Below are positions 31,981 to 61,520 of a DNA stretch of 64,000 nt, piece after piece. The DNA is from Eledone cirrhosa (lineage: Eukaryota). A model generated the notes under the pieces. That model saw only the letters and a program-made list of their open reading frames with translations, was not told the DNA's origin and made no database searches. Positions within the stretch are counted from its first letter, which is position 1. The number at the start of each line of letters is the position of its first letter. Location: positions 36,890,001 to 36,954,000 of the forward strand of contig OZ024752.1 in assembly GCA_964016885.1 (NCBI GenBank), written 5' to 3'. A program made the translations under genes and the position numbers.

Positions 31981-34039
31981 CAGAGGTTTGCAACCTGGTT
32001 CCTGTGGACCACTAGTGGTCCACAGGAAAATTCAGGTGGTCCACAGAAAATTTTCAATAGCAAATTCTTTTTTGATCCCTGCATTTGACTTAAAGCGCTG
32101 TTCTTATTCTTCGCATAAGTACGACATCAGCTGTTTATTTGCGTAGATTTTTAGGCACTGCGACATGATAAAATAAAGCACCAGTAATGGACTGGGGTCG
32201 ATTTAATTGACTTTCCCCATCCCCTCAAATTGCATTTTCTAATTCATTGAAAAAAAAACATCTACTGATGCTTATAAGTAGCAGTTCTATTACAAAAGAT
32301 TTAAAAGTTTAGGTGGTCCACAGAAAATTTTCAATAGCAAATTCTTTTTTGATCCATGCATTTGACTTAAAGCGCTCTTCTTATTCTTCGCATAAGTACG
32401 ACTTCAGCTGTTTATTTGCGTAGATTTTTAGGCACTGCGACATGATAAAATAAAGCAGCAGTAATGGACTGGGGTCGATTTAATTGACTTTCCCCATCCC
32501 CTCAAATTGCATTTTCTAATTCATTGAAAAAAAAACATCTACTGATGCTTATAAGTAGCAGTTCTATTACAAAAGATTTAAAAGTTTAGGTGGTCCACAG
32601 AAAATTTTCAATAGCAAATTCTTTTTTGATCCATGCATTTGACTTAAAGCGCTCTTCTTATTCTTCGCATAAGTACGACTTCAGCTGTTTATTTGCGTAG
32701 ATTTTTAGGCACTGCGACATGATAAAATAAAGCACCAGTAATGGACTGGGGTCGATTTAATTGACTTTCCCCATCCCCTCAAATTGCATTTTCTAATTCA
32801 TTGAAAAAAAAACATCTACTGATGCTTATAAGTAGCAGTTCTATTACAAAAGATTTAAAAGTTTAGGTGGTCCACAGAAAATTTTCAATAGCAAATTCTT
32901 TTTTGATCCATGCATTTGACTTAAAGCGCTCTTCTTATTCTTCGCATAAGTACGACTTCAGCTGTTTATTTGCGTAGATTTTTAGGCACTGCGACATGAT
33001 AAAATAAAGCACCAGTAATGGACTGGGGTCGATTTAATTGACTTTCCCCATCCCCTCAAATTGCATTTTCTAATTCATTGAAAAAAAAACATCTACTGAT
33101 GCTTATAAGTAGCAGTTCTATTACAAAAGATTTAAAAGTTTAGGTGGTCCACAGAAAATTTTCAATAGCAAATTCTTTTTTGATCCATGCATTTGACTTA
33201 AAGCGCTCTTCTTATTCTTCGCATAAGTACGACTTCAGCTGTTTATTTGCGTAGATTTTTAGGCACTGCGACATGATAAAATAAAGCACCAGTAATGGAC
33301 TGGGGTCGATTTAATTGACTTTCCCCATCCCCTCAAATTGCATTTTCTAATTCATTGAAAAAAAAACATCTACTGATGCTTATAAGTAGCAGTTCTATTA
33401 CAAAAGATTTAAAAGTTTAGGTGGTCCACAGAAAATTTTCAATAGCAAATTCTTTTTTGATCCATGCATTTGACTTAAAGCGCTCTTCTTATTCTTCGCA
33501 TAAGTACGACTTCAGCTGTTTATTTGCGTAGATTTTTAGGCACTGCGACATGATAAAATAAAGCACCAGTAATGGACTGGGGTCGATTTAATTGACTTTC
33601 CCCATCCCCTCAAATTGCATTTTCTAATTCATTGAAAAAAAAGCATCTACTGATGCTTATAAGTAGCAGTTCTATTACAAAAGATTTAAAAGTTTAGGTG
33701 GTCCACAGAAAATTTTCAATAGCAAATTCTTTTTTGATCCATGCATTTGACTTAAAGCGCTCTTCTTATTCTTCGCATAAGTACGACTTCAGCTGTTTAT
33801 TTGCGTAGATTTTTAGGCACTGCGACATGATAAAATAAAGCACCAGTAATGGACTGGGGTCGATTTAATTGACTTTCCCCATCCCCTCAAATTGCATTTT
33901 CTAATTCATTGAAAAAAAAGCATCTACTGATGCTTATAAGTAGCAGTTCTATTACAAAAGATTTAAAAGTTTAGGTGGTCCACAGGAAAAAATTACTTAT
34001 TTTGGTGGTTCACAGCGAAAAAAAGGTTGAGAACCCCTG
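31981..34039. mobile_element. hAT-type MITE with 8-bp TSD, expanded by seven 277-bp internal tandem units
   Basis: TIRs CAGAGGTTTGCAACCT and AGGTTGAGAACCCCTG. TSD acctattt at 31973-31980 and 34040-34047. ccacag landmark at 32041, 32318, 32595, 32872, 33149, 33426, 33703 and 33980. Confidence 0.9.
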
Positions 34040-35589: not shown

Positions 35590-35862
35590 CATTCAGCCAT
35601 GAAGCAACTTGTATTGAGTTACATGGTACCAGTATCTGGCAGAAGCTTGACCAGATCAGGGTCTGGTGGAGGAGCTAGTTTAGTTGCTGACCACTTGACC
35701 ATAAAGCAAGTTGTACTGGATTACATGGTATTTGTAGCAGACAGCAGCCTGACCAGACAAGGGTCTGATGGAATAACTGGTTTAGTCACCGACGACTTGG
35801 CCATGAAGCAGGTTGTACTTGGTTACATGGTACCAGTATTTGGCAGAAGCCTGGCCTGACCA
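35590..35862 (-). repeat. About 2.5 degenerate ~105-bp tandem units homologous to the motif at 62550-62635
   Basis: Minus strand repeats actggtaccatgtaaccaagtacaacctgcttcatgg...gtcgtcggtgactaaac. Confidence 0.6.
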
Positions 35863-35869
35863 CTTTACA

Positions 35870-36180
35870 TCATGTACTGGGAGCATGGTTTCTACAGCAG
35901 GATGCCCTTCCTAATGCCAAATACTTTACAATATGTACTGGGAGCATGGCTTCTACAGAGGATGCATTTCCTTATGCCAACCCCTGTACATCATGTACCG
36001 GGAGCATGGTTTCTACAGCAAGATGCCCTTCCTAATGCCAAATACTCTACAGTATGTACTGGGAGCATGGCTTCTACAGAGGATGCATTTCCTTTTGCCA
36101 ACCCCTGTACATCATGTACTGGGGGCATGGTTTCTACAGCAGGATGCGCTTCCTAATGGCAATTACTTTACATCATGTAC
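35870..36180. repeat. About 60-bp tandem units (about 5 copies, alternating) derived from the RTE/SINE tail motif
   Basis: atgtactgggagcatggtttctacagcaggatgcccttcctaatgcc repeated. Confidence 0.75.
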
Positions 36181-36382
36181 TGTACATGTACATTCCTGGA
36201 ACTCTTCCCTCTTACTTTCCATTTCTGTTTCTTTTTAATCCCTACTTTTCTCATTTCTTTGCACAATTTTTCTGTATTCTTTTAGATGAAACTGCTTAAA
36301 GTTGTGATGTTTCTATTTGTTCATTAAATCAACAATTTTTTTTCTTAGGTACATTAAAGGAAAGAAAACTGAAAGAAAGCAG

Positions 36383-36458
36383 ATGAGTTCAGCAACCCCC
36401 CACTTGTGTATTTTTTCTCTCATTTATGTTTTGATGTATATATTGCCAATATCAACAG
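36383..36458 (+). CDS. Uncharacterised secreted or membrane glycoprotein (gene 2), signal-peptide exon MSSATPHLCIFSLIYVLMYILPIST
   Basis: Acceptor ttttcttag| before 36349, ATG at 36383, hydrophobic core, donor ACAG|GTAAGT (phase 1). The frame is also open back to the acceptor, so an upstream start cannot be excluded. Confidence 0.72.
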
Positions 36459-37839
36459 GTAAGTTCAAGTTTAAAGACTAACTATACCATTTATTGCTTT
36501 GATTAAGATATTGACGATTTAGTATTGGTCCAGACCACAATGGTGGCTTAATAATTTTCTTGTGATCATAGCAAGAAGTGTGGAAATTAGATTCATCAGC
36601 TTGCTAAACTATAAATTGAAATTATTTTATTTGGAAGAAGCATGTGACATAACTGGAAAAAAGGAAGGAACCTTGTAGGAGCTGGTTTAGGGAGTTATAA
36701 CTAAATACCCAGGTACTGGGCCTGAACACAATGATGACATCACAGAATTCTGTAATGTTTCATTTAGCTTGAAAACTGTTATTGGAAAATTGTTTCTGAT
36801 TTAGGCCCAAGGCCAACAATTTTTGGGGGAGGGTAAAGTCGATTAAATCGACCCAGTGCATTACTGGTACTTTATTTTATCAACCCCTGTAAGGGTGAAA
36901 GGCAAAGCTAACCTCGGCGGGATTTGAACTTAGAACATAAAGGACCGTAACTCTATGCCACAAAACATGTTGTCTGATTATAATTGTTTCTACTTTTGGC
37001 ACAATGCCAGCAATTACCCAGTGCATTACTGGTACTTTATTTTATCAACCCCTGTAAGGGTGAAAGGCAAAGCTAACCTCGGCGGGATTTGAACTCAGAA
37101 TGGCAAGGGCCATAACTCTATGCATCAAAGCATGGCGTACAACCCTCTACCGATACTGCCAATCCACCATATTGTCTGATTATAATATTAATAAAAACTA
37201 TAATCCATGGGCATTTTGTAATCTCTTGCCTGTGACTGCCCTCTGGTTCCTCTCCACAGCCTTGGTGTCCACTCTGTCACGCTAGTAGTCCACCTGTTGT
37301 CTCTGAAACGAGAGACATGGCTAGCCCATCTATGTTTGCCCTTCTTGATAGTCTTGATTATGTCTGTTACACCAGTCTGCTGTCAACTCCAGGTGTTGCT
37401 CTTCCTGTCATGTAAAGTAATGCTGAATATGATTTGCCCTATTTTACATATGTTGGGTCACTGCAGTGGTGGTGTTTGAGTGCCTGTGGCTCACTTCCAT
37501 TAGTCATCATTAGCAGAACATATTCATTAAGCATTTAGCCAGAATTCACTCACCCTTTTCTGTTCAAACTGGCTGTAAATGGCCATTCATACTCATGTTA
37601 AGGTATTGTTCTCAAAATAAATAACATCAAAATCTCATAGATTCAATATTATGTGAGATAATTATGTGAGGTAAAGTGTTTACCACAAAAATATAATTGT
37701 AAATACAGAGTAATGTAAATGCTAAAGGGTTAAGCAGCATTCTCTTAGTTTTAATTGTTGACGTGGGACTTCTAACGAGAGAGAGTGAGTAATGGGGTTT
37801 ACTAGTTAAGACTAATAAGACCAGCTTAGTACTTGATAC

Positions 37840-38073
37840 TTAACCCTTTCATGACTGCATTTCTAATGAAGTGCACTCTATTTTGATTAGTTAATGTAGA
37901 ATTTTGAGTGATTTATTAAGATTATTAATTATTTCTTTACTAAGATAGTAACTTAATGTTAAGTTCTTATATAAAATTATGTTGGAAGATTTAAATTTAA
38001 ATTTGAAACCTTTAAAATCGGTGGTTTTATTTCATTGAACCAGAGCTAGTTTGGATGGTAACTAAAGGGTTAA
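37840..38073. mobile_element. TTAA-flanked MITE (second piggyBac-type family), the single-unit progenitor of the 62-bp array at 41761-42500
   Basis: TTAACCCTTT...AAAGGGTTAA ends. Contains one copy of agttcttatataaaattatgttggaagatt. Confidence 0.6.
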
Positions 38074-38349
38074 GATAATAGAGAGTAGGTAGTATAACGT
38101 GTCTCTGCCTGATGACTGTACCATATCGACAACAAGCCAGCCACTCACATGTGCATGTATATATGTATATTTGTGTGCGTATTTTGTATATAATCATACA
38201 TAAAGATTTACCAAAAAAAGTACTTAATATATGTCAGTGGAACATATTTATTTTTTCTATTTTTACTGGAAGAAATTATTCCCACATACACACAACATTG
38301 AAATTTCTTGAATGTAACTAATAACATTCTTTGTTTTATTCTCTTTCAG

Positions 38350-38364
38350 CTGTTTGCGAAATAT
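38350..38364 (+). CDS. Gene 2 microexon 1 (15 nt, phase 1-1; AVCEI)
   Basis: ttttattctctttcag|CTGTTTGCGAAATAT|gtgagt: strong acceptor and donor, length a multiple of 3, in frame. Confidence 0.62.
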
Positions 38365-38489
38365 GTGAGTTAAATAAATTTACACCTACATTATTGTACA
38401 GAAGCATCTAACTGCTTCACAAGCTTCCCTTGCTTACCATTTTTTCTTTATTTTTCTTTTTATGCTTATTTTACCTCCCATAGACCTTA

Positions 38490-38825
38490 CCTATTTAAGT
38501 CTATCTTGTTTTTTATTCCCAACTGTAAGAAGTACTAGATACTTATCCCTAGTCTGTCATCGCTTACTAGCTCTATACAGACGTTTAAATTGATTTTTAG
38601 TTTTATATTCACTTATCTCTGTCTATCTTGTTTTTTTTTTATTTCCCAACTGTAAGAAGTACTAGATACTTCCCCTAGTCTGTTATGGCTTACTAGCTCT
38701 ATACGGACGTTTAAAATGATTTTAATTTTAATTCTTATTTTTATATTCCCTTATCTCTGGATATCTCTGTCTTGTTTTTTTATTTCTCAACTGTAAGAAG
38801 TACAAAATATTCCCCCTAGTCTAAA
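38490..38825. repeat. About 2.5 degenerate ~125-140 bp tandem copies in the intron after microexon 1
   Basis: tcttgtttttt...caactgtaagaagtac...ccctagtct occurs three times. Confidence 0.7.
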
Positions 38826-39940
38826 CACGTCTTCTGCAGTCACTGCCCATGTTTCACTACCATGCAGCATCGCACTTCGCACACAGCCATCATAATGTCG
38901 TCCTTTTGTACATAGGGAGAAACCTTTTGTTTTTGTTTTCTACAATGGGTCTCTCCTCAGCAAAAGGCGTATTGTAGAAGGCTTGTGTGCAAATGGCAAT
39001 GCTAGATGGTGGTGAGAGCTTGCTTGGCTTTGTATATGGTGGACTTACAGAGATTGGAAAGAAATGAGGCAAGCATGCTTCAATGGATGTCTAAAATAAC
39101 AACAACAACAACAACAACAATAATGCCAATATATTTTATTTTGTCATTTTGTTTTTCCATTTCAGAAGGGATAATTTACTTCCCCCTCAACTGTCTCTTT
39201 CACAACCACACTCCATTAGAACCTTTAGTCTTTCTCTATTGCTTTTCAAAATTCTTCTTTCAAGACAAGCAGACAAACTTTCATGCTTATTATATAGACT
39301 GGCATCCAATTAATTTTTACTACACTGCAAATAAAGAACATTTTATAATGATGTGTGTATAATCACTCTTGCTTAGCCTGGCAGCTGTTCTCATCTTGTT
39401 CTCTGATGATGATAAAAAAATAGTATATAAATTAAATAATCAAAATAAATCTATTTATATAAAAACAAAACACATTATTAAAGGAAATGAAAAGAAGAAA
39501 GGGAAAAATGATTTATTGAAAAAAAAAAAAATTTAGTGGTTAGACATTAATTAAAAAAACACGTACTCTTCTACTCTTCCTTATTATTAATTAGTTAATT
39601 ATTCATAATGATTAAAGGTGCAATAGATAATTATGGAAACACCATTATGTTTACTAAAATATCATCATTTTCATTTTAACGTCCTCTTTCCCTGCTAGCA
39701 AGGATTGGACGGGTCTACATAGACCAAGTCAGTACTGAAGCAGAGCCACTGATCCCAGCTTATGTACAGTTTCATGTTCCACCAAATGCATAAGAGAGGT
39801 TGTCCTGTCTTTGACACGATTGAAGGTCCTCCCAACCCTTTGTTCGGCAAGTTTTCTATGGCTGGGTGCCCTTCTTATCACCAACCACTTTATAGTGTGT
39901 ACTGGGTGTGTTTATTGTATACAACATTTGAAAACTTCAA

Positions 39941-40266
39941 GAGAGAGATCCAGCAAAAGGTAATTCATGTTTAGGGCCTGCTTTGAGAGAGATCCAGCAA
40001 ATGGTAATTCAGGTTTAGGGCCAGCTTTGAGAGAGATCCAGCAAATGGTAATTCATGTTTAAGGCCTGCTTTGAGAGAGATCCAGCAAATGCTAATTCAG
40101 GTTTAGGGCCAGCTTTGAGAGAGATCCAGCAAAAGGTAATTCAGGTTTAGGGCCTGCTTTGAGAGAGATCCAGCAAATGGTAATTCAGGTTTAGGGCCAG
40201 CTTTGAGAGAGATCCAGCAAAAGGTAATTCATGTTTAGGGCCTGCTTTGAGAGAGATCCAGCAAAA
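39941..40266. repeat. 44-bp minisatellite, about 7.4 copies
   Basis: gagagagatccagcaaatggtaattcaggtttagggcctgcttt at 39941, 39985 and onward. Confidence 0.92.
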
Positions 40267-40617
40267 GAAAGAAGGTTGGAAGTTCTTTCCCTGTTTTTTT
40301 TGTTTTTTTTTTTTAAATTCGAAGGCTACATGCCTAGAAGAAATCTGTTGTATTCAGACTTGGAGAGGAGATAGGCTCTGATAGGTTTCTAAAAACTGTC
40401 CTAGAAACGTTGTATGTCAATACAGTGCCCCTGCAACCCCCTCAGGAGTTATGGAACTAGAAACTGGGTTGTGAAATAAATACTGTAATAAATTTATTTT
40501 GTTGAAGAATTTAATTTTTCTTATTTATTCTTTTCTATATGCTGTCTTTAAAAATGTGTTCGTTTTTGTGGGAATTTCTTTATAAATAATGAAATTCTTT
40601 GTTTCAATCTCTTCCAG

Positions 40618-40635
40618 CACGCGAAAATTGTAATG
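40618..40635 (+). CDS. Gene 2 microexon 2 (18 nt, phase 1-1; SRENCN)
   Basis: tttcaatctcttccag|CACGCGAAAATTGTAATG|gtaagt. Flanking intron sequence is similar to that of microexon 1. Confidence 0.65.
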
Positions 40636-41760
40636 GTAAGTTAAATAAATTTATCCCTTACATTATTGTACATGAAACTATATAATTCTTTTCTCTCAAT
40701 TCTTTCTGTCATCAAGTCAATGAAAGGAGAAAAAAAGCCAACAATATACTGTGTTACTTCTCAAACCATTGGGCTTTTAACAAATGTTTGGCTTCACAAT
40801 TTTTTTCAACCTTTAATGAATACAATCTCTCCACACACATTCTCCATTTATCAAAACCAGGTCACCATTCTGAATTTTCGAAATGGAATTCATTATGTAT
40901 ATATATTTTACAAGCTATACAACTACATCAACAGGTTCTTTAGATCCTGCTATTAAATTATATTTTCCAGTTTAACACTTTAGCATTTAAACTGGCCATA
41001 TTCGGTCAGAATTCTCTCCTCTCTTTCTGTTCAAACCAGCTGTAACCAACCGCTCATACTTATGTTAAGGTATTGTTCTCAAAATAAATAATATAAAAAT
41101 CTCATGGATTTGATATTATGTGAGATAAAACCTTTATCATGAAAATATAATTGTAAATATAGAGTACTGTAAATACTAAAGGGTTAAGAATTCTATCTTT
41201 CAAACATTGTACAAAATTTAGAATATAATCATCAAAAATGTCTAAAACATTTATAAATGAATGCATTTATTCAAATCTGATGATTCCCTCAATTGCTCAA
41301 CAAAAGGGAATTTATACACTATAAAATCGTTTCCTCAATATTGTTTGAAGGTTTATGATCTAGTGGTTTGGGTGTTATGTTTGGCCATAAGGTTGTGGGT
41401 TTGATTCCCAAACCAAGTTACATGTTATACCCTTGAGCAAGGCATTTCATTTCATGTACGCCCACCATACAACAACAACCTAAGACTAGAATACATGATA
41501 CTCCAATAATAAGATTATTGAAAAATTGATAATTTTGAAATGCTGGGTAAAAATCATTGCTCATCTCTGATATAACCTTGATCCATGTACCAGTTCCACC
41601 ACCCTTTCTTTACAGAAATTGCAAACTATTTTTAAACATCTATAATATTTTTCTCTTTAATCCTTTCATGATTGTATTTTCTTATCAAATATTTTCTATT
41701 TTAATTAATTAATGAAGAATTTTGAGAGATTTAGTAAAATTATTAATTATTTCTTTACTA

Positions 41761-42500
41761 AGTAACTTAATGTGAAGTTCTTATATAAAATTATGTTGGG
41801 AGATTTTAACTTAAATTGGAAAGTAACTTAATATGAGGTTCTTATATAAAATTATGTTGGGAGATTTTAACTTAAATTGGAATAATAAATTAATTTAAGG
41901 TTCTTATATAAAATTATGTTGGGAGATTTTAACTTAAATTGGAATAATAATTTAATTTAAGGTTCTTATATAAAATTATGTTGGGAGATTTTAACTTAAA
42001 TTGGAATAATAACTTAATTTAAGGTTCTTATATAAAATTATGTTGGGAGATTTTAACTTAAATTGGAATAATAACTTAATTTAAGGTTCTTATATAAAAT
42101 TATGTTGGGAGATTTTAACTTAAATTGGAATAATAACTTAATTTAAGGTTCTTATATAAAATTATGTTGGGAGATTTTAACTTAAATTGGAATAATAACT
42201 TAATTTAAGGTTCTTAAATAAAATTATGTTAGGAGATTTTAACTTAAATTGGAATAATAACTTAATTTAAGGTTCTTAAATAAAATTATGTTAGGAGATT
42301 TTAACTTAAATTGGAATAATAACTTAATTTAAGGTTCTTATATAAAATTATGTTGGGAGATTTTAACTTAAATTGGAATAATAACTTAATTTAAGGTTCT
42401 TAAATAAAATTATGTTAGGAGATTTTAACTTAAATTGGAAAGTAACTTAATGTGAGGTTCTTATATAAAATTATGCTGGAAGATCTTAATTTAAATTGGA
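41761..42500. repeat. 61/62-bp minisatellite, about 12 copies, inside a MITE (about 41658-42564) ending about 40 nt before a gene 2 acceptor
   Basis: ggttcttatataaaattatgttgggagattttaacttaaattggaataataacttaatttaa repeats. The flanks match 37840-38073. Confidence 0.9.
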
Positions 42501-42603
42501 AACCTTGAAATTGGGTGTCTTTATTTCATAGAACCAGAGCCAATTTTGGTAACAGAACAGTTAAACATCACAAAATATTTCATGTTATATTCTCCTTTTT
42601 CAG

Positions 42604-42768
42604 AATATTTTTCTTCAATATCCTGTCAACTAAAGTTTGCAGCGTCTAAAAAATGTGCAGTCAAAGTTGAATTTGATGATAAACCTAAAGGCTTTGAACA
42701 TAATAGGTTTGATTTCAACGAACTAAATCTGACAAATCCCATTAAGTTCAATGTTACGGTCTACTTTG
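42604..42768 (+). CDS. Gene 2 exon (EYFSSISCQLKF...NPIKFNVTVYF)
   Basis: Acceptor ctcctttttcag|, donor TTTG|GTAAGA, 165 nt, phase 1-1. Same frame as ORF 42546..42815. Confidence 0.75.
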
Positions 42769-44477: not shown

Positions 44478-47400
44478 TCATCATCATCATCATTTTACGT
44501 CCGCTTTTCCCTGCTTGCAAGGGTGGGACAGGTCTTATTCAGCACAGCATCTCTCCACTCGTCACGGTCCCTCGTCATCTCCACCGTGAGCTTCAATGAT
44601 CTGAGGTCTGTTCTCACCACCTCCGCCCATGTTTTTCGTGGTCTACCTCTACCACGTCTTCCTTCAACTGGCATTTCCTGGCACTTCTTCACCCATCGGT
44701 CATCCTCCATGCACATCACATGTCCATACCACCTCAGTCTCCTCTCCCGTACACTACATTCTATCCCTCTCAGACACAGTTTCTCTCTCAACACATTTAT
44801 GCTGGGTCGTTCACGCACATTTACACTGCACATCCAACGGAGCATGCTTGCCTCATTTCTCTCCAGCCGTCGCATATCCTCTGCGGTTGCTGCCCATGTC
44901 CCACTACCATGCAGCATCGCGCTCCTCACACAGGCATCATACAACCGGCCTTTCGTACGCAGGGAGAAACCCTTCTTCGTCAACAGAGGAAGCAGCTCCC
45001 TAAACTTCTTCCAACCCGTCCTTATTCTAGATACTATGGCCTCGGAACACCCTCCTCCCATGCTAATCTGATCTCCTAGGTACCGGAAGCTATCCACCAC
45101 TTCTATAGCGCCCTCTCGCATTTGAAAAATGTGTCTATCAGTGCGACTTCTACTGTCTAATTTCCCTGTACATCTACTGCATACATATTTCTCCCTACCT
45201 GTTAGTTTGCCTGCTATCCCGCTACATCTCTTGTGTACCCAGGACCTGCATTGTGTGCATTTTATAGAATTTATGCCAGTTCCTTTTCTGCATATCGAAC
45301 ATGGCCATTTCCCTGACGGAATCAGGGTTTTGTCCTCTTTTCTACTCACCAACACTTTTGTCTTAGCTAGATTTACTCTCAGTCCTCTTGCTTCCAACTG
45401 CTGTTTCCATAGCCGGAATTTATTCTCTAGCTCCTCTACTGATTCTGCTATAAGAGCCAGATCGTCAGCATAGAGAAGTTCCCATGGACAGCCAGTCTTA
45501 AACTCCTCTGTTATGGCTTGGAGGACTATAATGAACAAGAGCGGGCTGAGGACCGAACCCTGATGTACTCCTACTTGTATCTGGAATTCCTCACTAAACT
45601 CCATTCCTACCCTGACCTTACTGAGAGTACCTCTGTACAAAGTTTGCACTGTCCTCACAAGCCATTCCTCAACACCTAGCTTCCTTAGGGACCACCAGAT
45701 GACAGATCGGGGTACCCTATCAAAGGCCTTCTCTAGGTCAACAAAGGCTAAGTATAGTGGCTTATTCTTCTCTAAGAACCTCTCTTGCATTTGTCTCGCC
45801 AAGAAGAGGGCATCTGTTGTTCTCTTCCCAGGCACAAAACCAAACTGCATCTCATCTAGTTTGACCCTTTCTCTAATTAGTTGTGCTAAAATCCTTTCTG
45901 CCACTTTCATAACCTGATCTATCAGTTTTATACCCCTATAATTGCTCCTCCCCAAAGCATCCCCTTTACCTTTGTAGCAATTTATGAGAATACTGCTGCA
46001 CCAGTCTTTGGGTATGACACCACCATATATAGCCTGATTGATGATGCGTGCAACCAGTTTAGTGCCTACGTCCCCTGATGCCTTCAGCATCTCAGCAACT
46101 ATTCCCGATGGTCCGGCCGCCTTACCATTTTTCATTTCCCTAATCGCCTCTTGGACCCTATATTCGTCAATCTCAATAGCTGGTCCCTCTGTCGGATCTA
46201 CCAAGGGTAATTTCTCTCTCTCCCATTCGTTCTCCACATTCATCAGTCTCTCATAATGACATTTCCAGGCCTCCTTTTTCTGGTCATTCGTGACACTAAG
46301 TACACCGGCATCATCCCGGACACATTTATCTCCAACAACATCCTGATTTGCATTGACACACTGCCTTGCAATGTGGAACACCGCACGCCTCTGATCTTCC
46401 CGTCGCAGAACATTGGCAAACCTCCTACTCTCTGCCTCCCTGTGTGCTAAGTACACCTGACGTTTAGCTTCTCTCTTAGTGGCTGTATATTCTTCCCTAC
46501 TCCCACCCTTTTTCCAAGCCTTCCATGCTAGTCTTTTGTCTCTAATAGCCTTATCTACTGTGCTGTTCCACCACCAGGTCACTCTCTGTCTGGTTGGAGC
46601 TCTGCTCCAGCCACAGGTTTCATCAGTAGCCTGCAGCAAGTTGTCACGTAAGAACTTCCAGTTATTATCTATGTCATACGTCTCTAAATCGTCTTCTTTT
46701 TCGTCATATACATCTTGAAGGGCTTTCCTAAATTTGTATTTTAGTGAAAGGTCTTTTAGCTTCCAGACCTTTCTTCTCCACACCTTCCTATATGTCTCAT
46801 TCCATCTCTTGCTTACTGAGATATCACTAACAACTAACCTATGCTGTGGGGGTACATTCTTCCCCAGGGTATGCCTTGGTATTAGACACTATCTGCCTGT
46901 CCCGCTGCCTAACTAGCAGGAAGTCAATCTGGCTTATGTGCTCACCAGATTTGTAGGTTATTAGGTGATTGGCAGGTTTCTGGAAGTTTGTGTTGCAAAT
47001 AGTCAATGTACTCGCATCACAAAATTCAAGAAGTCTCACTCCTTCTTCATTTCTTGAACCGTAACCGTGCCCAGCATGTACCCCAGTGTAACCATCCTGG
47101 AGCTGTCCAACATGACCATTGAAGTCTCCTGCTAGCATAACGATGTCTCCGTCCTCTGTCATTGTGGTTGTTTGCAAAAGTTGCTCATAAAAGCAGTCTT
47201 TCTCATCTTTGCCTAGGCCTGCTTGGGGAGCATAGACCGAGATGATTGTCAGTAGTCTCCTACCTACAACTAATCTAAGCTTAATTATTCGATTACTAAC
47301 TCAAACTACCTCTATTGTCTTATTGATCCATTTCTCAGACAGGAAAATGCCTACTCCCCCTAACCCATCATCCTTACCTACCCAGAATAGCTTATAGCTA

Positions 47401-49267: not shown

Positions 49268-49440
49268 GAAAAACTAGTTGTTATGAGACATGCTGCTTGA
49301 AAAGAAACACTACTGAGAAATATCTTTGTTATAACAATAATTGTCAGAATAATATATTTTTCATTTTTCACGACAACACTATGAAAAATGAGACTTCTGA
49401 AAACATTTGTCTTTCTGGCAACCAGTTAGCCATCAAAAGG
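49268..49440 (+). CDS. Gene 2 exon (GKTSCYETCCLKRNTTEKYLCY...NQLAIKR)
   Basis: Acceptor tttttcag|, donor AAGG|GTGAGT, phase 1-0. Same frame as ORF 49297..49497. Confidence 0.75.
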
Positions 49441-50504: not shown

Positions 50505-50622
50505 AAGAAAATACTAGAAAAGCCATTGATGAAAATGAATTTACGGAATGAAGTATACTTTAAAGATAAGATGAACATAAATAAAAATGAATCCTGTCAA
50601 GAAGATATGTGGCAGATAACAG
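50505..50622 (+). CDS. Gene 2 exon (KKILEKPLMK...NESCQEDMWQIT)
   Basis: Open frame with donor ACAG|GTAAGA. Its phase 0-1 exactly bridges the neighbouring exons. The acceptor ccttacag is weak, and an in-frame alternative AG lies 9 nt upstream. Confidence 0.65.
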
Positions 50623-51364: not shown

Positions 51365-51468
51365 ATTCCAATGTGGAGGATTGGAATTCATTTTTTTATG
51401 AAAATGTAACAAATTGTTTGTTAAGAACTAAAGACAGAATCAAGAAAAAGTATATTTTGGTCCTTAAA
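51365..51468 (+). CDS. Gene 2 exon (DSNVEDWNSFFYENVTNC...YILVLK)
   Basis: Long T-rich tract ending in tcag|, donor TAAA|GTAAGT, phase 1-0, open in the required frame. Confidence 0.72.
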
Positions 51469-53208: not shown

Positions 53209-53263
53209 AAAAAAATTGAAGATAGGGAAATTTGGCATTTCCTTGTTGTTAAACCAGAACGAG
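53209..53263 (+). CDS. Gene 2 exon (KKIEDREIWHFLVVKPER), the last exon found in the window
   Basis: Acceptor atttatttccag|, phase 0 entry, donor CGAG|GTTTGT (weak, phase 1). Read-through gives GGT TTG TAA. Confidence 0.62.
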
Positions 53264-53362: not shown

Positions 53363-56300
53363 ACAGGTGAGGTGAACATAGCGTACATGGGTTAGACAGG
53401 TGAGGTGAACATAGCGTACATGGGTTAGACAGGTGAGGTGAACATAGATTACATGGGTTAGACAGGTGAGGTGAACATAGCTTACATAGGTTAGACAGGT
53501 GAGGTGAACATAGCTTACATGGGTTAGACAGGTGAGGTGAACATAGCTTACATGGGTTAGACAGGTGAGGTGAACATAGCGTACATAGATTAGACAGGTG
53601 AGGTGAACATAGCTTACATGGGTTAGACAGGTGAGGTGAACATAGCGTACATGGGTTAGACAGGTGAGGTGAACATAGCTTACATAGGTTAGACAGGTGA
53701 GGTGAACATAGTTTACATGGGTTAGACAGGTGAGGTGAACATAGCTTACATAGGTTAGACAGGTGAGGTAAACATAGCTTACATAGGTTACACAGGTGAG
53801 GTGAACATAGTTTACATGGGTTAGACAGGTGAGGTGAACATAGCTTACATAGGTTAGACAGGTGTGGTGAACATAGCTTACATAGGTTAGACAGGTGAGG
53901 TGAACATAGCTTACATGGGTTAGACAGGTGAGGTGAACATAGTTTACATGGGTTAGACAGGTGAGGTGAACATAGCTTACATAGGTTAGACAGGTGAAAT
54001 GAACATAGCTTACATAGGTTAGACAGGTGAGGTGAACATAGCTTACATAGGTTAGACAGGTGAGGTGAACATAGCTTACATAGATTAGACAGGTGAGGTG
54101 AACATAGCTTACATGGGTTAGACAGGTGAGGTGAACATAGCTTACATAGGTTAGACAGGTGAGGTGAACATAGTTTACATGGGTTAGACAGGTGAGGTGA
54201 ACATAGCTTACATAGGTTAGACAGGTGAGGTGAACATAGCTTACATGGGTTAGACAGGTGAGGTGAACATAGCTTACATAGGTTAGACAGGTGAAATGAA
54301 CATAGCTTACATAGGTTAGACAGGTGAGGTGAACATAGCTTACATAGGTTAGACAGGTGAGGTGAACATAGCTTACATAGATTAGACAGGTGAGGTGAAC
54401 ATAGCTTACATGGGTTAGACAGGTGAGGTGAACATAGCTTACATAGGTTAGACAGGTGAGGTGAACATAGCTTACATAGGTTAGACAGGTGAGGTGAACA
54501 TAGCTTACATGGGTTAGACAGGTGAGGTGAACATAGCTTACATAGGTTAGACAGGTGAGGTGAACATAGCTTACATAGGTTAGACAGGTGAGGTGAACAT
54601 AGCTTACATGGGTTAGACAGGTGAGGTGAACATAGCTTACATAGGTTAGACAGGTGAGGTGAACATAGCTTACATAGATTAGACAGGTGAGCTGAACATA
54701 GCTTACATGGGTTAGACAGGTGAGGTGAACATAGCTTACATAGGTTAGACAGGTGAGGTGAACATAGCTTACATAGATTAGACAGGTGAAGTGAACATAG
54801 CTTACATAGATTAGACAGGTGAGCTGAACATAGCTTACATGGGTTAGACAGGTGAGGTGAACATAGCTTACATAGGTTAGACAGGTGAGGTGAACATAGC
54901 TTACATAGGTTAGACAGGTGAGGTGAACATAGCTTACATGGGTTAGACAGGTGAGGTGAACATAGCTTACATAGGTTAGACAGGTGAGGTGGACATAGCT
55001 TACATAGGTTAGACAGGTGAGGTGAACATAGCTTACATGGGTTAGACAGGTGAGGTGAACATAGCTTACATAGATTAGACAGGTGAAGTGAACATAGCTT
55101 ACATAGATTAGACAGGTGAGGTGAACATATCTTACATAGGTTAGACAGGTGAGGTGAACATAGCTTACATAGGTTAGACAGGTGAGGTGAACATAGCTTA
55201 CATAGGTTAGACAGGTGAGGTGAACATAGCTTACATGGGTTAGACAGGTGAGGTGAACATAGCTTACATAGGTTAGACAGGTGAGGTGAACATAGCTTAC
55301 ATGGGTTAGACAGGTGAGGTGAACATAGCTTACATAGGTTAGACAGGTGAGATGAACATAGCTTACATGGGTTAGACAGGGGAGGTGAACATAGCTTACA
55401 TGGGTTAGACAGGTGAGGTGAACATAGCTTACATGGGTTAGACAGGTGAGGTGAACATAGCTTACATGGGTTAGACAGGTGAGGTGAACATAGCTTACAT
55501 GGGTTAGACAGGTGAGGTGAACATAGCTTACATGGGTTAGACAGGTGAGGTGAACATAGCTTACATAGGTTAGACAGGTGAGGTGAACATAGATTACATG
55601 GGTTAGACAGGTGAGGTGAACATAGCTTACATGGGTTAGACAGGTGAGGTGAACATAGTTTACATGGGTTAGACAGGTGAGGTGAACATAGCTTACATGG
55701 GTTAGACAGGTGAGGTGAACATAGACAGGTGAGGTGAACAAAGCTTACATAGATTAGACAGGTGAGGTGAACATAGCTTACATAGATTAGACAGGTGAGG
55801 TGAACATAGCTTACATAGGTTAGACAGGTGAGGTGAACATAGACAGGTGAGGTGAACATAGCTTACATAGATTAGACAGGTGAGGTGAACATAGCTTACA
55901 TATGTTAGACAGGTGAGGTGAACATAGACAGGTGAGGTGAACATAGCTTACATAGATTAGACAGGTGAGGGGAACATAGCTTACATAGATTAGACAGGTG
56001 AGGTGAACATAGCTTACATAGGTTAGACAGGTGAGGTGAACATAGCTTACATAGGTTAGACAGGTGAGGTGAACATAGCTTACATAAGTTAGACAGGTGA
56101 GGTGAACATAGCTTACATAGGTTAGACAGGTGGATAGGTGAGGTGAACATAGCTTACATAGGTTAGACAGGTGAGGTGAACATAGCTTACATGGGTTAGA
56201 CAGGTGAGGTGAACATAGCGTACATGGGTAAGACAGGTGAGGTGAACATAGCTTACATAGGTTAGACAGGTGAGGTGAACATAGTTTACATGGGTTAGAC

Positions 56301-59300
56301 AGGTGAGGTGAACATAGCTTACATAGGTTAGACAGGTGAGGTGAACATAGCTTACATAGGTTAGACAGGTGAGGTGAACATAGTTTACATGGGTTAGACA
56401 GGTGAGGTGAACATAGCTTACATAGGTTAGACAGGTGTGGTGAACATAGCTTACATAGGTTAGACAGGTGAGGTGAACATAGCTTACATGGGTTAGACAG
56501 GTGAGGTGAACATAGTTTACATGGGTTAGACAGGTGAGGTGAACATAGCTTACATAGGTTAGACAGGTGAAATGAACATAGCTTACATAGGTTAGACAGG
56601 TGAGGTGAACATAGCTTACATAGGTTAGACAGGTGAGGTGAACATAGCTTACATAGATTAGACAGGTGAGGTGAACATAGCTTACATGGGTTAGACAGGT
56701 GAGGTGAACATAGCTTACATAGGTTAGACAGGTGAGGTGAACATAGTTTACATGGGTTAGACAGGTGAGGTGAACATAGCTTACATAGGTTAGACAGGTG
56801 AGGTGAACATAGCTTACATAGATTAGACAGGTGAGGTGAACATAGCTTACATAGGTTAGACAGGTGAGGTGAACATAGCTTACATAGGTTAGACAGGTGA
56901 GGTGAACATAGCTTACATAGATTAGACAGGTGAGGTGAACATAGCTTACATGGGTTAGACAGGTGAAGTGAACATAGCTTACATAGGTTAGACAGGTGAG
57001 GTGAACATAGCTTACATAGGTTAGACAGGTGAGGTGAACATAGCTTACATGGGTTAGACAGGTGAGGTGAACATAGCTTACATAGGTTAGACAGGTGAGG
57101 TGAACATAGCTTACATAGGTTAGACAGGTGAGGTGAACATAGCTTACATGGGTTAGACAGGTGAGGTGAACATAGATTACGTGGGTTAGACAGGTGAGGT
57201 GAACATAGCTTACATGGGTTAGACAGGTGAGGTGAACATAGCTTACATAGGTTAGACAGGTGAGGTGGACATAGCTTACATAGGTTAGACAGGTGAGGTG
57301 AACATAGCTTACATGGGTTAGACAGGTGAGGTGAACATAGATTACGTGGGTTAGACAGGTGAGGTGAACATAGCTTACATGGGTTAGACAGGTGAGGTGA
57401 ACATAGCTTACATGGGTTAGACAGGTGAGGTGAACATAGCTTACATGGGTTAGACAGGTGAGGTGAACATAGCTTACATGGGTTAGACAGGTGAGGTGAA
57501 CATAGCTTACATGGGTTAGACAGGTGAGGTGAACATAGCTTACATAGGTTAGACAGGTGAGGTGAACATAGATTACATGGGTTAGCCAGGTGAGGTGAAC
57601 ATAGCTTACATGGGTTAGACAGGTGAGGTGAACATAGACAGGTGAGGTGAACAAAGCTTACATAGATTAGACAGGTGAGGTGAACATAGCTTGCATAGAT
57701 TAGACAGGTGAGGTGAACATAGCTTACATAGGTTAGACAGGTGAGGTGAACATAGACAGGTGAGGTGAACATAGCTTACATAGATTAGACAGGTGAGGTG
57801 AACATAGCTTACATAGATTAGACAGGTGAGGTGAACATAGCTTACATAGGTTAGACAGGTGAGGTGAACATAGCTTACATGGGTTAGACAGGTGAGGTGA
57901 ACATAGCGTACATGGGTTAGACAGGTGAGGTGAACATAGCTTACATAGGTTAGACAGGTGAGGTGAACATAGTTTACATGGGTTAGACAGGTGAGGTGAA
58001 CATAGCTTACATAGGTTAGACAGGTGAGGTGAACATAGCTTACATAGGTTAGACAGGTGAGGTGAACATAGTTTACATGGGTTAGACAGGTGAGGTGAAC
58101 ATAGCTTACATAGGTTAGACAGGTGTGGTAAACATAGCTTACATAGGTTAGACAGGTGAGGTGAACATAGCTTACATGGGTTAGACAGGTGAGGTGAACA
58201 TAGTTTACATGGGTTAGACAGGTGAGGTGAACATAGCTTACATAGGTTAGACAGGTGAAATGAACATAGCTTACATAGGTTAGACAGGTGAGGTGAACAT
58301 AGCTTACATAGGTTAGACAGGTGAGGTGAACATAGCTTACATAGATTAGACAGGTGAGGTGAACATAGCTTACATGGGTTAGACAGGTGAGGTGAACATA
58401 GCTTACATAGGTTAGACAGGTGAGGTGAACATAGTTTACATGGGTTAGACAGGTGAGGTGAACATAGCTTACATAGGTTAGACAGGTGAGGTGAACATAG
58501 CTTACATGGGTTAGACAGGTGAGGTGAACATAGCTTACATAGGTTAGACAGGTGAAATGAACATAGCTTACATAGGTTAGACAGGTGAGGTGAACATAGC
58601 TTACATAGGTTAGACAGGTGAGGTGAACATAGCTTACATAGATTAGACAGGTGAGGTGAACATAGCTTACATGGGTTAGACAGGTGAGGTGAACATAGCT
58701 TACATAGGTTAGACAGGTGTGGTGAACATAGCTTACATAGGTTAGACAGGTGAGGTGAACATAGCTTACATGGGTTAGACAGGTGAGGTGAACATAGTTT
58801 ACATGGGTTAGACAGGTGAGGTGAACATAGCTTACATAGGTTAGACAGGTGAAATGAACATAGCTTACATAGGTTAGACAGGTGAGGTGAACATAGCTTA
58901 CATAGGTTAGACAGGTGAGGTGAACATAGCTTACATAGATTAGACAGGTGAGGTGAACATAGCTTACATGGGTTAGACAGGTGAGGTGAACATAGCTTAC
59001 ATAGGTTAGACAGGTGAAATGAACATAGCTTACATAGGTTAGACAGGTGAGGTGAACATAGCTTACATAGGTTAGACAGGTGAGGTGAACATAGCTTACA
59101 TAGATTAGACAGGTGAGGTGAACATAGCTTACATGGGTTAGACAGGTGAAGTGAACATAGCTTACATAGGTTAGACAGGTGAGGTGAACATAGCTTACAT
59201 AGGTTAGACAGGTGAGGTGAACATAGCTTACATGGGTTAGACAGGTGAGGTGAACATAGCTTACATAGGTTAGACAGGTGAGGTGAACATAGCTTACATA

Positions 59301-61520
59301 GGTTAGACAGGTGAGGTGAACATAGCTTACATGGGTTAGACAGGTGAGGTGAACATAGCTTACATAGGTTAGACAGGTGAGGTGAACATAGCTTACATAG
59401 GTTAGACAGGTGAGGTGAACATAGTTTACATGGGTTAGACAGGTGAGGTGAACATAGCTTACATAGGTTAGACAGGTGAGGTGAACATAGCTTACATGGG
59501 TTAGACAGGTGAGGTGAACATAGCTTACATAGGTTAGACAGGTGAAATGAACATAGCTTACATAGGTTAGACAGGTGAGGTGAACATAGCTTACATAGGT
59601 TAGACAGGTGAGGTGAACATAGCTTACATAGATTAGACAGGTGATGTGAACATAGCTTACATGGGTTAGACAGGTGAAGTGAACATAGCTTACATAGGTT
59701 AGACAGGTGAGGTGAACATAGCTTACATAGGTTAGACAGGTGAGGTGAACATAGCTTACATGGGTTAGACAGGTGAGGTGAACATAGCTTACATAGGTTA
59801 GACAGGTGAGGTGAACATAGCTTACATAGGTTAGACAGGTGAGGTGAACATAGCTTACATGGGTTAGACAGGTGAGGTGAACATAGCTTACATAGGTTAG
59901 ACAGGTGAGGTGGACATAGCTTACATAGGTTAGACAGGTGAGGTGAACATAGCTTACATGGGTTAGACAGGTGAGGTGAACATAGCTTACATAGATTAGA
60001 CAGGTGAAGTGAACATAGCTTACATAGATTAGACAGGTGAGGTGAACATAGCTTACATAGGTTAGACAGGTGAGGTGAACATAGCTTACATAGGTTAGAC
60101 AGGTTAGGTGAACATAGCTTACATAGGTTAGACAGGTGAGGTGAACATAGCTTACATGGGTTAGACAGGTGAGGTGAACATAGCTTACATAGGTTAGACA
60201 GGTGGATAGGTGAGGTGAACATAGCGTACATGGGTTAGACAGGTGAGGTGAACATAGCGTACATGGGTTAGACAGGTGAGGTGAACATAGATTACGTGGG
60301 TTAGACAGGTGAGGTGAACATAGCTTACATGGGTTAGACAGGTGAGGTGAACATAGCTTACATAGGTTAGACAGGTGAGGTGGACATAGCTTACATAGGT
60401 TAGACAGGTGAGGTGAACATAGCTTACATGGGTTAGACAGGTGAGGTGAACATAGCTTACATAGATTAGACAGGTGAAGTGAACATAGCTTACATAGATT
60501 AGACAGGTGAGGTGAACATAGCTTACATAGGTTAGACAGGTGAGGTGAACATAGCTTACATAGGTTAGACAGGTGAGGTGAACATAGCTTACATAGGTTA
60601 GACAGGTGAGGTGAACATAGCTTACATGGGTTAGACAGGTGAGGTGAACATAGCTTACATAGGTTAGACAGGTGAGGTGAACATAGCTTACATGGGTTAG
60701 ACAGGTGAGGTGAACATAGCTTACATAGGTTAGACAGGTGAGGTGAACATAGCTTACATGGGTTAGACAGGGGAGGTGAACATAGCTTACATGGGTTAGA
60801 CAGGTGAGGTGAACATAGCTTACATGGGTTAGACAGGTGAGGTGAACATAGCTTACATGGGTTAGACAGGTGAGGTGAACATAGCTTACATGGGTTAGAC
60901 AGGTGAGGTGAACATAGCTTACATGGGTTTGACAGGTGAGGTGAACATAGCTTACATAGGTTAGACAGGTGAGGTGAACATAGATTACATGGGTTAGACA
61001 GGTGAGGTGAACATAGCTTACATGGGTTAGACAGGTGAGGTGAACATAGCTTACATAGGTTAGACAGGTGAGGTGAACATAGCTTACATAGATTAGACAG
61101 GTGAGGTGAACATAGCTTACATAGGTTAGACAGGTGAGGTGAACATAGCTTACATAGGTTAGACAGGTGAGGTGAACATAGACAGGTGAGGTGAACATAG
61201 CTTACATAGATTAGACAGGTGAGGTGAACATAGCTTACATAGATTAGACAGGTGAGGTGAACATAGCTTACATAGGTTAGACAGGTGAGGTGAACATAGA
61301 CAGGTGAGGTGAACATAGCTTACATAGATTAGACAGGTGAGGGGAACATAGCTTACATAGATTAGACAGGTGAGGTGAACATAGCTTACATAGGTTAGAC
61401 AGGTGAGGTGAACATAGCTTACATAGGTTAGACAGGTGAGGTGAACATAGCTTACATAGGTTAGACAGGTGAGGTGAATATAGCTTACATAGGTTAGACA
61501 GGTGGATAGGTGAGGTGAGC
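53363..61520. repeat. 33-bp satellite, about 245 copies, with higher-order block structure
   Basis: Unit TTAGACAGGTGAGGTGAACATAGCTTACAT(A/G)GG. 19-bp deletion units near 55721, 55841, 55925, 57635, 57753, 61180 and 61297. ggtggatagg variant at about 56130, 60201 and 61501. Confidence 0.98.

Follow-up and report, generated by a model that had tools for sequence, protein, structure and literature searches.

Microexons in the ectodomains of aGPCRs (adhesion G protein-coupled receptors) and exon duplication are already known, and the pair of exons described here is not new in its general kind. In the micro-exon genes (MEGs) of schistosomes, most of the coding region consists of very short symmetric exons; as outlined in PMC4350168, such genes appear to be limited to flatworms. 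Small in-frame extracellular exons occur as splice inserts of aGPCRs, i.e., the latrophilin mini-exon and exon 6 of ADGRG6/Gpr126 (PMC13108381, PMC6954182); the former is located between the lectin and olfactomedin domains (PMC13108381). The neural microexons dependent on SRRM3/4 (eMIC) comprise 27 nt or less, preserve the reading frame, and are typically preceded by UGC between the branch point and the AG; 74-79% of them have this motif, which is not strictly required (bioRxiv 2024.09.17.613571).

The two exons under study, A and B, lie on the forward strand of the window (the whole analysed stretch of 64,000 nt from Eledone cirrhosa, contig OZ024752.1). As in MEGs, they are symmetric candidate microexons that follow a putative signal peptide. 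The initial annotation cited MEGs as a known parallel, which does not extend to family membership: in spite of the signal-like stretch, the gene encodes a seven-transmembrane (7TM) aGPCR rather than a secreted product, the symmetric microexons constitute 33 of its 2,524 coding nucleotides (1.3%) and 2 of its 29 exons, and one of their combinations creates a stop. Similarly to the latrophilin and ADGRG6/Gpr126 inserts, A and B are small, extracellular, and in frame. However, those inserts have been shown to be alternative, whereas A and B form a duplicated pair at the mature N-terminus, contain a Cys each, and one of them needs the other for an open frame. With 15 and 18 nt, they also share the size and frame preservation of SRRM3/4 microexons, while the UGC is found before neither of them (0/2).

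The features tested – GPS, GAIN, and 7TM – identify the predicted product as an adhesion GPCR (class B2). The hand-built model comprises 29 exons, all with AG/GT ends, and 840 open codons. Exon 5 (49268..49440) encodes a Cys-rich part of the N-terminal domain with six Cys residues; exons 6 (50505..50622), 7 (51365..51468), and 8 (53209..53263) are modelled by orthologue alignment, all on the forward strand. Exons 9-29, encoding GAIN, GPS, 7TM, and the tail, are located past the window, and the gene runs ~38 kb beyond it, to about G000:C12:36991740. The GPS motif within exon 18 (PF01825, E 1.7e-12, 48.1 bits with a cut-off of 22.5) contains the H-L-T cleavage triad. The secretin-type 7TM family (PF00002) was detected in both orthologues scanned, and the 7TM exons of this gene are collinear with them and open. 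For the GAIN domain, the orthologues were tested instead of the window protein: a profile of three Octopus orthologues matches ADGRL3 at 314-795 (E 1.4e-58) and latrophilin-1 (chain 4dlq) at 316-520, and the orthologues match solved adhesion GPCRs from GAIN onward (48 sequences), with ADGRL3 as the best. Exon 10 is another microexon, of 17 nt (L002:3249-3265); it is non-symmetric (phase 1-0) and cannot be skipped in frame. It is preceded by a 94-nt AG-free zone; as conservation is poor in this region, its position in the model relies on the reading frame and splice signals.

Exon 1 (36383..36458), the first coding exon, encodes a hydrophobic, signal-peptide-like stretch (residues 4-26 by hydropathy) and ends in phase 1 with a G followed by the donor gtaagt. 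Microexon A (exon 2, 38350..38364) consists of 15 nt, encodes Cys28, and ends with a T; microexon B (exon 3, 40618..40635) consists of 18 nt, encodes Cys35, and ends with a G. Exon 4 (42604..42768) starts with AA and encodes two Cys residues, lacking the Cys69 of the Octopus proteins. Every junction among these exons is in phase 1, both microexons thus being 1-1, and the ends of A and B are AG/GT. The duplicated acceptor flank of A (38315..38349) has a branch-point-like CTAAT at -32, a pyrimidine tract, and a 77-nt AG-free zone, while that of B (40583..40617) has a pyrimidine tract and a 110-nt AG-free zone. The duplicated donor flanks comprise gtgagt and 30 further nucleotides in A (38365..38400), and gtaagt and 31 further nucleotides in B (40636..40672). 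The coordinates, lengths, phases, splice-site ends, and single Cys codons given for A and B by the initial annotation are all confirmed, and the flank sequences that it quoted agree with the window to the letter. The GCGAAA core that it described is indeed present in both exons, but does not pair their Cys codons. This common 6-mer is the only one, two indels are needed to align the exon bodies, and the Cys codons remain out of register. Since GCGAAA places the Cys codon of A opposite an Arg codon of B, the two Cys residues are not homologous in this sequence register, and divergence is greater in the exon bodies than in the adjoining introns.

As in tandem exon duplicates, A and B are bordered on both sides by homologous intron that is not a dispersed repeat. 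Their flanks are identical at 62 of 72 positions (29/35 upstream and 33/37 downstream, counted from the alignments). The self-comparison of the window, proposed earlier in the form of a dot plot, recovers this match (38302-38400 and 40573-40672, homologous at 75%), yet its second match, 37540-37734 with 41007-41188, is a dispersed repeat that has copies near 9.0, 23.0, and 49.6 kb and a read depth near 500,000. A/B ranks first among the 378 donor-flank pairs of this gene (51.5; next 34; mean 15.2) and first among its 378 acceptor-flank pairs (50; next 44; mean 23.3), the lead being clear for the former and narrow for the latter. The local score of 82 was equalled in none of 500 shuffles (maximum 28). 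In a DNA search of the 3.0-Gb genome, with the best candidates scored, the B segment matched itself and A (E 1.4e-8). Contigs from three runs of one sample, which behave as genomic DNA and are possibly the source of the assembly itself, cross both microexons at a depth of ~13-50, as compared with 10^4 to 10^6 for the neighbouring repeats. A search of sequencing runs with a 6.7-kb, mostly intronic stretch listed these three and no RNA run, a blank that carries no information on expression. As these low-depth DNA contigs span both exons, a dispersed repeat and an assembly artefact are ruled out as the source of the pair. The flank is not a repeat family either: its 18-mer has three genome matches, the third of them without further likeness, versus eight for a control. 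Similarity of the flanks is at the level of chance past +37 (367/500 shuffles) and weak past -43 (5/500 shuffles); the homology ends near -35 and +37. A longer duplication unit was rejected, since the two further blocks in common, at 37.5/41.0 kb and at 37.8/41.7-42.5 kb, are high-depth repeats. Neither the exon-1 donor (10.5 and 11.5) nor the exon-4 acceptor (32.5 and 23.5) stands clearly above background as the source of the unit, and no third microexon or remnant was found in introns 1-3. By these sequence comparisons, the duplication of A and B is real and local, and covers ~100 nt, which supports the earlier proposal of a duplication-born, phase-symmetric microexon pair adding one Cys each after the signal peptide.

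Exons whose length is a multiple of three and whose phases agree are not necessarily free to combine, since a stop may arise from the codons split at their junctions. It had been proposed that either, both, or neither of the microexons could be included. The frame is preserved in every case; however, A joined directly to exon 4 creates TAA (T|AA) at codon 31 and a product of 30 aa. The predicted products of the other three combinations are open, with 840 aa (A and B), 835 aa (B only), and 829 aa (neither). Of the nine symmetric internal exons, only B leads to a truncated protein when skipped by itself, and among the 11 phase-1 exon ends that of A is the only T, while eight are G. The joining of exon 1 to A or B yields Ala26, also found at position 26 in O. 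bimaculoides and O. sinensis, whereas its joining to exon 4 yields Glu instead. As signal peptidase cleavage requires small residues at -1/-3, Ala26 is likely the residue preceding the cut; cleavage after Ala26 would fit the hydrophobic stretch of residues 4-26, a candidate signal peptide.

A search with the GPS exon returned two candidates, from Octopus bimaculoides and O. vulgaris, whose clusters add O. sinensis. These proteins are collinear with the model over the full length, and XP_014769618.1 has 496 identities to it in 826 aligned residues. The protein divergence points to an octopod other than the three Octopus species. One-to-one orthology with the Octopus proteins is likely on the basis of sequence, because the genome's further five GPS matches show 45-53% identity and searches of it with exons 4 and 5 recovered nothing but these exons, with no N-terminal paralogues among the few candidates scored. 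A protein search with exon 4 gave no match among seven candidates. The Octopus proteins, annotated as 'adhesion G protein-coupled receptor L4-like', share the Cys-rich N-terminal domain, GPS, 7TM, and the cysteine segment following Ala26; their slot contains 21 residues and three Cys, as opposed to 11 residues and two Cys here, where Cys69 is also absent. The L4 label is automatic. ADGRL4/ELTD1 has EGF-like N-terminal domains, while Pfam finds GPS and 7tm_2 alone in the orthologues, which does not support orthology to ADGRL4/ELTD1. The title of PMC6626334 places the origin of ADGRL4 with vertebrates.

Six Octopus records were retrieved, of which five reach the N-terminus (XP_014769618.1, XP_052823013.1, A0A0L8HT67, XP_029634696.1, and CAI9721574.1) and the sixth starts in the GAIN region. 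The 21-residue segment with three Cys between Ala26 and the exon-4 equivalent is present in all five; these records are annotations with one form each and give no measure of skipping. The RefSeq isoforms X1 and X2 differ at the C-terminal tail only. Both species groups share the C-x6-C-N spacing, at Cys28/35 here and 30/37 in Octopus. With A and B included, the mature N-terminal domain contains 12 Cys, versus 14 in Octopus, where the surplus consists of one Cys in the microexon slot and Cys69 in the exon-4 equivalent. This distribution, one in the slot and one in the next exon, suggests that they might be disulfide partners and that the bond was gained or lost as a unit. The choice of the extra Octopus block depends on the alignment, and the spacing to the next Cys also fits an equivalence of Cys35 and Cys45. 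Octopus Cys332 is lone and unshared, so that even parity is not strict in this protein. No Pfam family covers the N-terminal 240 residues, with the Cys-rich domain of exons 4-8; their three matches in 1.84 billion representatives come from O. bimaculoides, a fragment of Argonauta, and one further fragment. The microexon slot falls outside the coverage of the outgroup Argonauta hians fragment (GAB1597454.1) and of the Logan fragment. The AlphaFold model of the Octopus N-terminal domain (pLDDT 35) has a low-confidence alpha/beta second half and is too poor to reveal any disulfide bond; a Foldseek search with it gave no match at E<=0.001, and the Atlas leads are weak (Ig-like at 0.84 or less, or absent).

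A and B are likely genuine microexons with a structural role, normally included together, and each of them probably contributes one disulfide Cys to the tip of the receptor's outer domain. A unit of ~100 nt, or a larger one since eroded to its splice signals, would have been duplicated; the two exons would then have come to differ in length and sequence, with retention of the branch point, the pyrimidine tract, and the donor-side element. These signals would have been kept because tiny exons need strong definition; together with the AG-free zones (77 and 110 nt), they would define A and B. With both exons always included, nothing would have protected the junction between A and exon 4, which was therefore free to become a stop. 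A transcript losing B alone would encode the 30-residue peptide and no receptor, and would probably be degraded. Stops very near the start can escape decay. If a Cys pair is gained or lost together, the difference between 12 and 14 Cys is as expected. Co-inclusion is favoured by the truncation of the A-only form, the Ala26 rule, the five of five Octopus records, the Cys spacing, the 12/14 Cys, the 17-nt exon 10 that this gene cannot skip in frame, and the lack of TGC before either acceptor, which says little, as 27 of the gene's 28 acceptors lack it. Against it count the open frames of the B-only and skip-both forms, Ala26 being retained in the former, and the greater likeness of the flanks than of the exons, which is also compatible with a regulated exon. 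The orthologue and cysteine evidence favours joint inclusion over the earlier suggestion that the microexons change Cys number or disulfide parity.

Constrained alternative splicing is possible but rather unlikely. Under this alternative, either A would be a regulated cassette in addition to B, or A and B would be skipped together. The receptor would then exist in two or three forms (12, 11, or 10 Cys), and the loss of B by itself would serve as a decay (off) switch. The open B-only and skip-both frames permit such forms, the exonic donor end of A (TAT) is a poor match to the consensus, and the likeness of the flanks extends to 14 identical nucleotides past the donor consensus. Precedents exist: N-terminal splice variants are reported for 72% of the mouse aGPCRs studied (PMC6667449), and the 4-aa latrophilin mini-exon affects teneurin binding (PMC13108381). 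However, the segment is missing in none of the five Octopus records, an odd Cys count would mean a free thiol, and skipping of both exons places Glu at the likely cleavage residue.

Rather doubtful is also a wider conjecture, according to which an octopod-specific receptor domain was built and rebuilt by copying a one-Cys microexon, with two copies here and three in Octopus, and with a parallel gain or loss of the partner Cys in the following exon. The 63-nt Octopus slot divides into 18+21+24 nt, each piece ending with Cys-X. The junction codons would constitute a built-in splice logic, in which A without B gives a stop and the absence of both removes the signal-cleavage Ala. A shared intronic element of 35 nt, preserved through selection or gene conversion, would co-regulate the pair as an on/off or free-thiol switch of the receptor.

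A recent, lineage-specific duplication, with B as the sole functional exon, A decaying or included at a low level, and the match to the Octopus spacing due to chance, is improbable. The flank identity of 86% is high for copies predating a split that left the proteins 60% identical, and the exons of A and B align poorly with each other. Nevertheless, A retains intact AG, GT, and branch-like signals as well as a length divisible by three, and it still provides Ala26 and a Cys spaced as in Octopus, while the B-only form would have an odd Cys count (11), and plain neutral decay does not predict that exons diverge more than flanks. The flank identity needs selection or gene conversion if the copies predate the split from Octopus; if they are recent, the match in Cys spacing is a coincidence. 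Finally, a free four-way combination (+0, +15, +18, and +33) yielding four proteins as in schistosome MEGs, to which the divisibility by three, the 1-1 phases, and the position after the signal peptide had pointed, is refuted for this assembly as regards the proteins, unless the junction codon is altered by double editing or in different alleles, since the +15 join gives TAA, exon 4 offers no in-frame alternative acceptor nearby in its sequence, and A-to-I editing would presumably have to alter both adenosines to remove the stop.

The value of the A/B pair lies in its being a compact test case for the limits of free microexon combination; it might also exemplify disulfide content evolving through microexon copy number in an N-terminal domain whose matches are all from octopods. 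Octopus-specific aGPCR expansions, expressed in the nerve cord, suckers, and skin, are described in PMC6408891, and the long-read annotation of O. sinensis (PMC9699675, data S1) may bear on the inclusion of the microexons. In the full-text literature, from whose coverage most subscription journals are absent, there was no paper on this gene or its exons, and its accessions returned zero matches.

At 41763-42501, a 62-nt segment from the interior of a dispersed repeat forms a tandem array of 12 copies, which ends ~100 nt upstream of exon 4; the repeat also occurs in unexpanded form at 37840-38073. Further arrays occupy window positions 32027-33990, 35859-36182, and 39941-40265, with periods of 277, 61/121, and 44 nt, respectively. 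In exon 15, the acceptor and the initial bases recur ~6 times in tandem with a period of ~47 nt (L002:8421-8720), which provides several candidate acceptors upstream of the modelled one. Intron 4 contains a LINE-like element on the minus strand (44495-46888), whose 797-codon open frame encodes a reverse transcriptase (PF00078, E 5e-29) and, after it, a segment matching the PHD finger (PF00628, 25.6 bits, cut-off 24). Intron 8 harbours an 8.1-kb satellite (53363-61504 of the window) with 249 copies of a 33-nt unit at 92% matches, yielding long spurious open reading frames on the minus strand.
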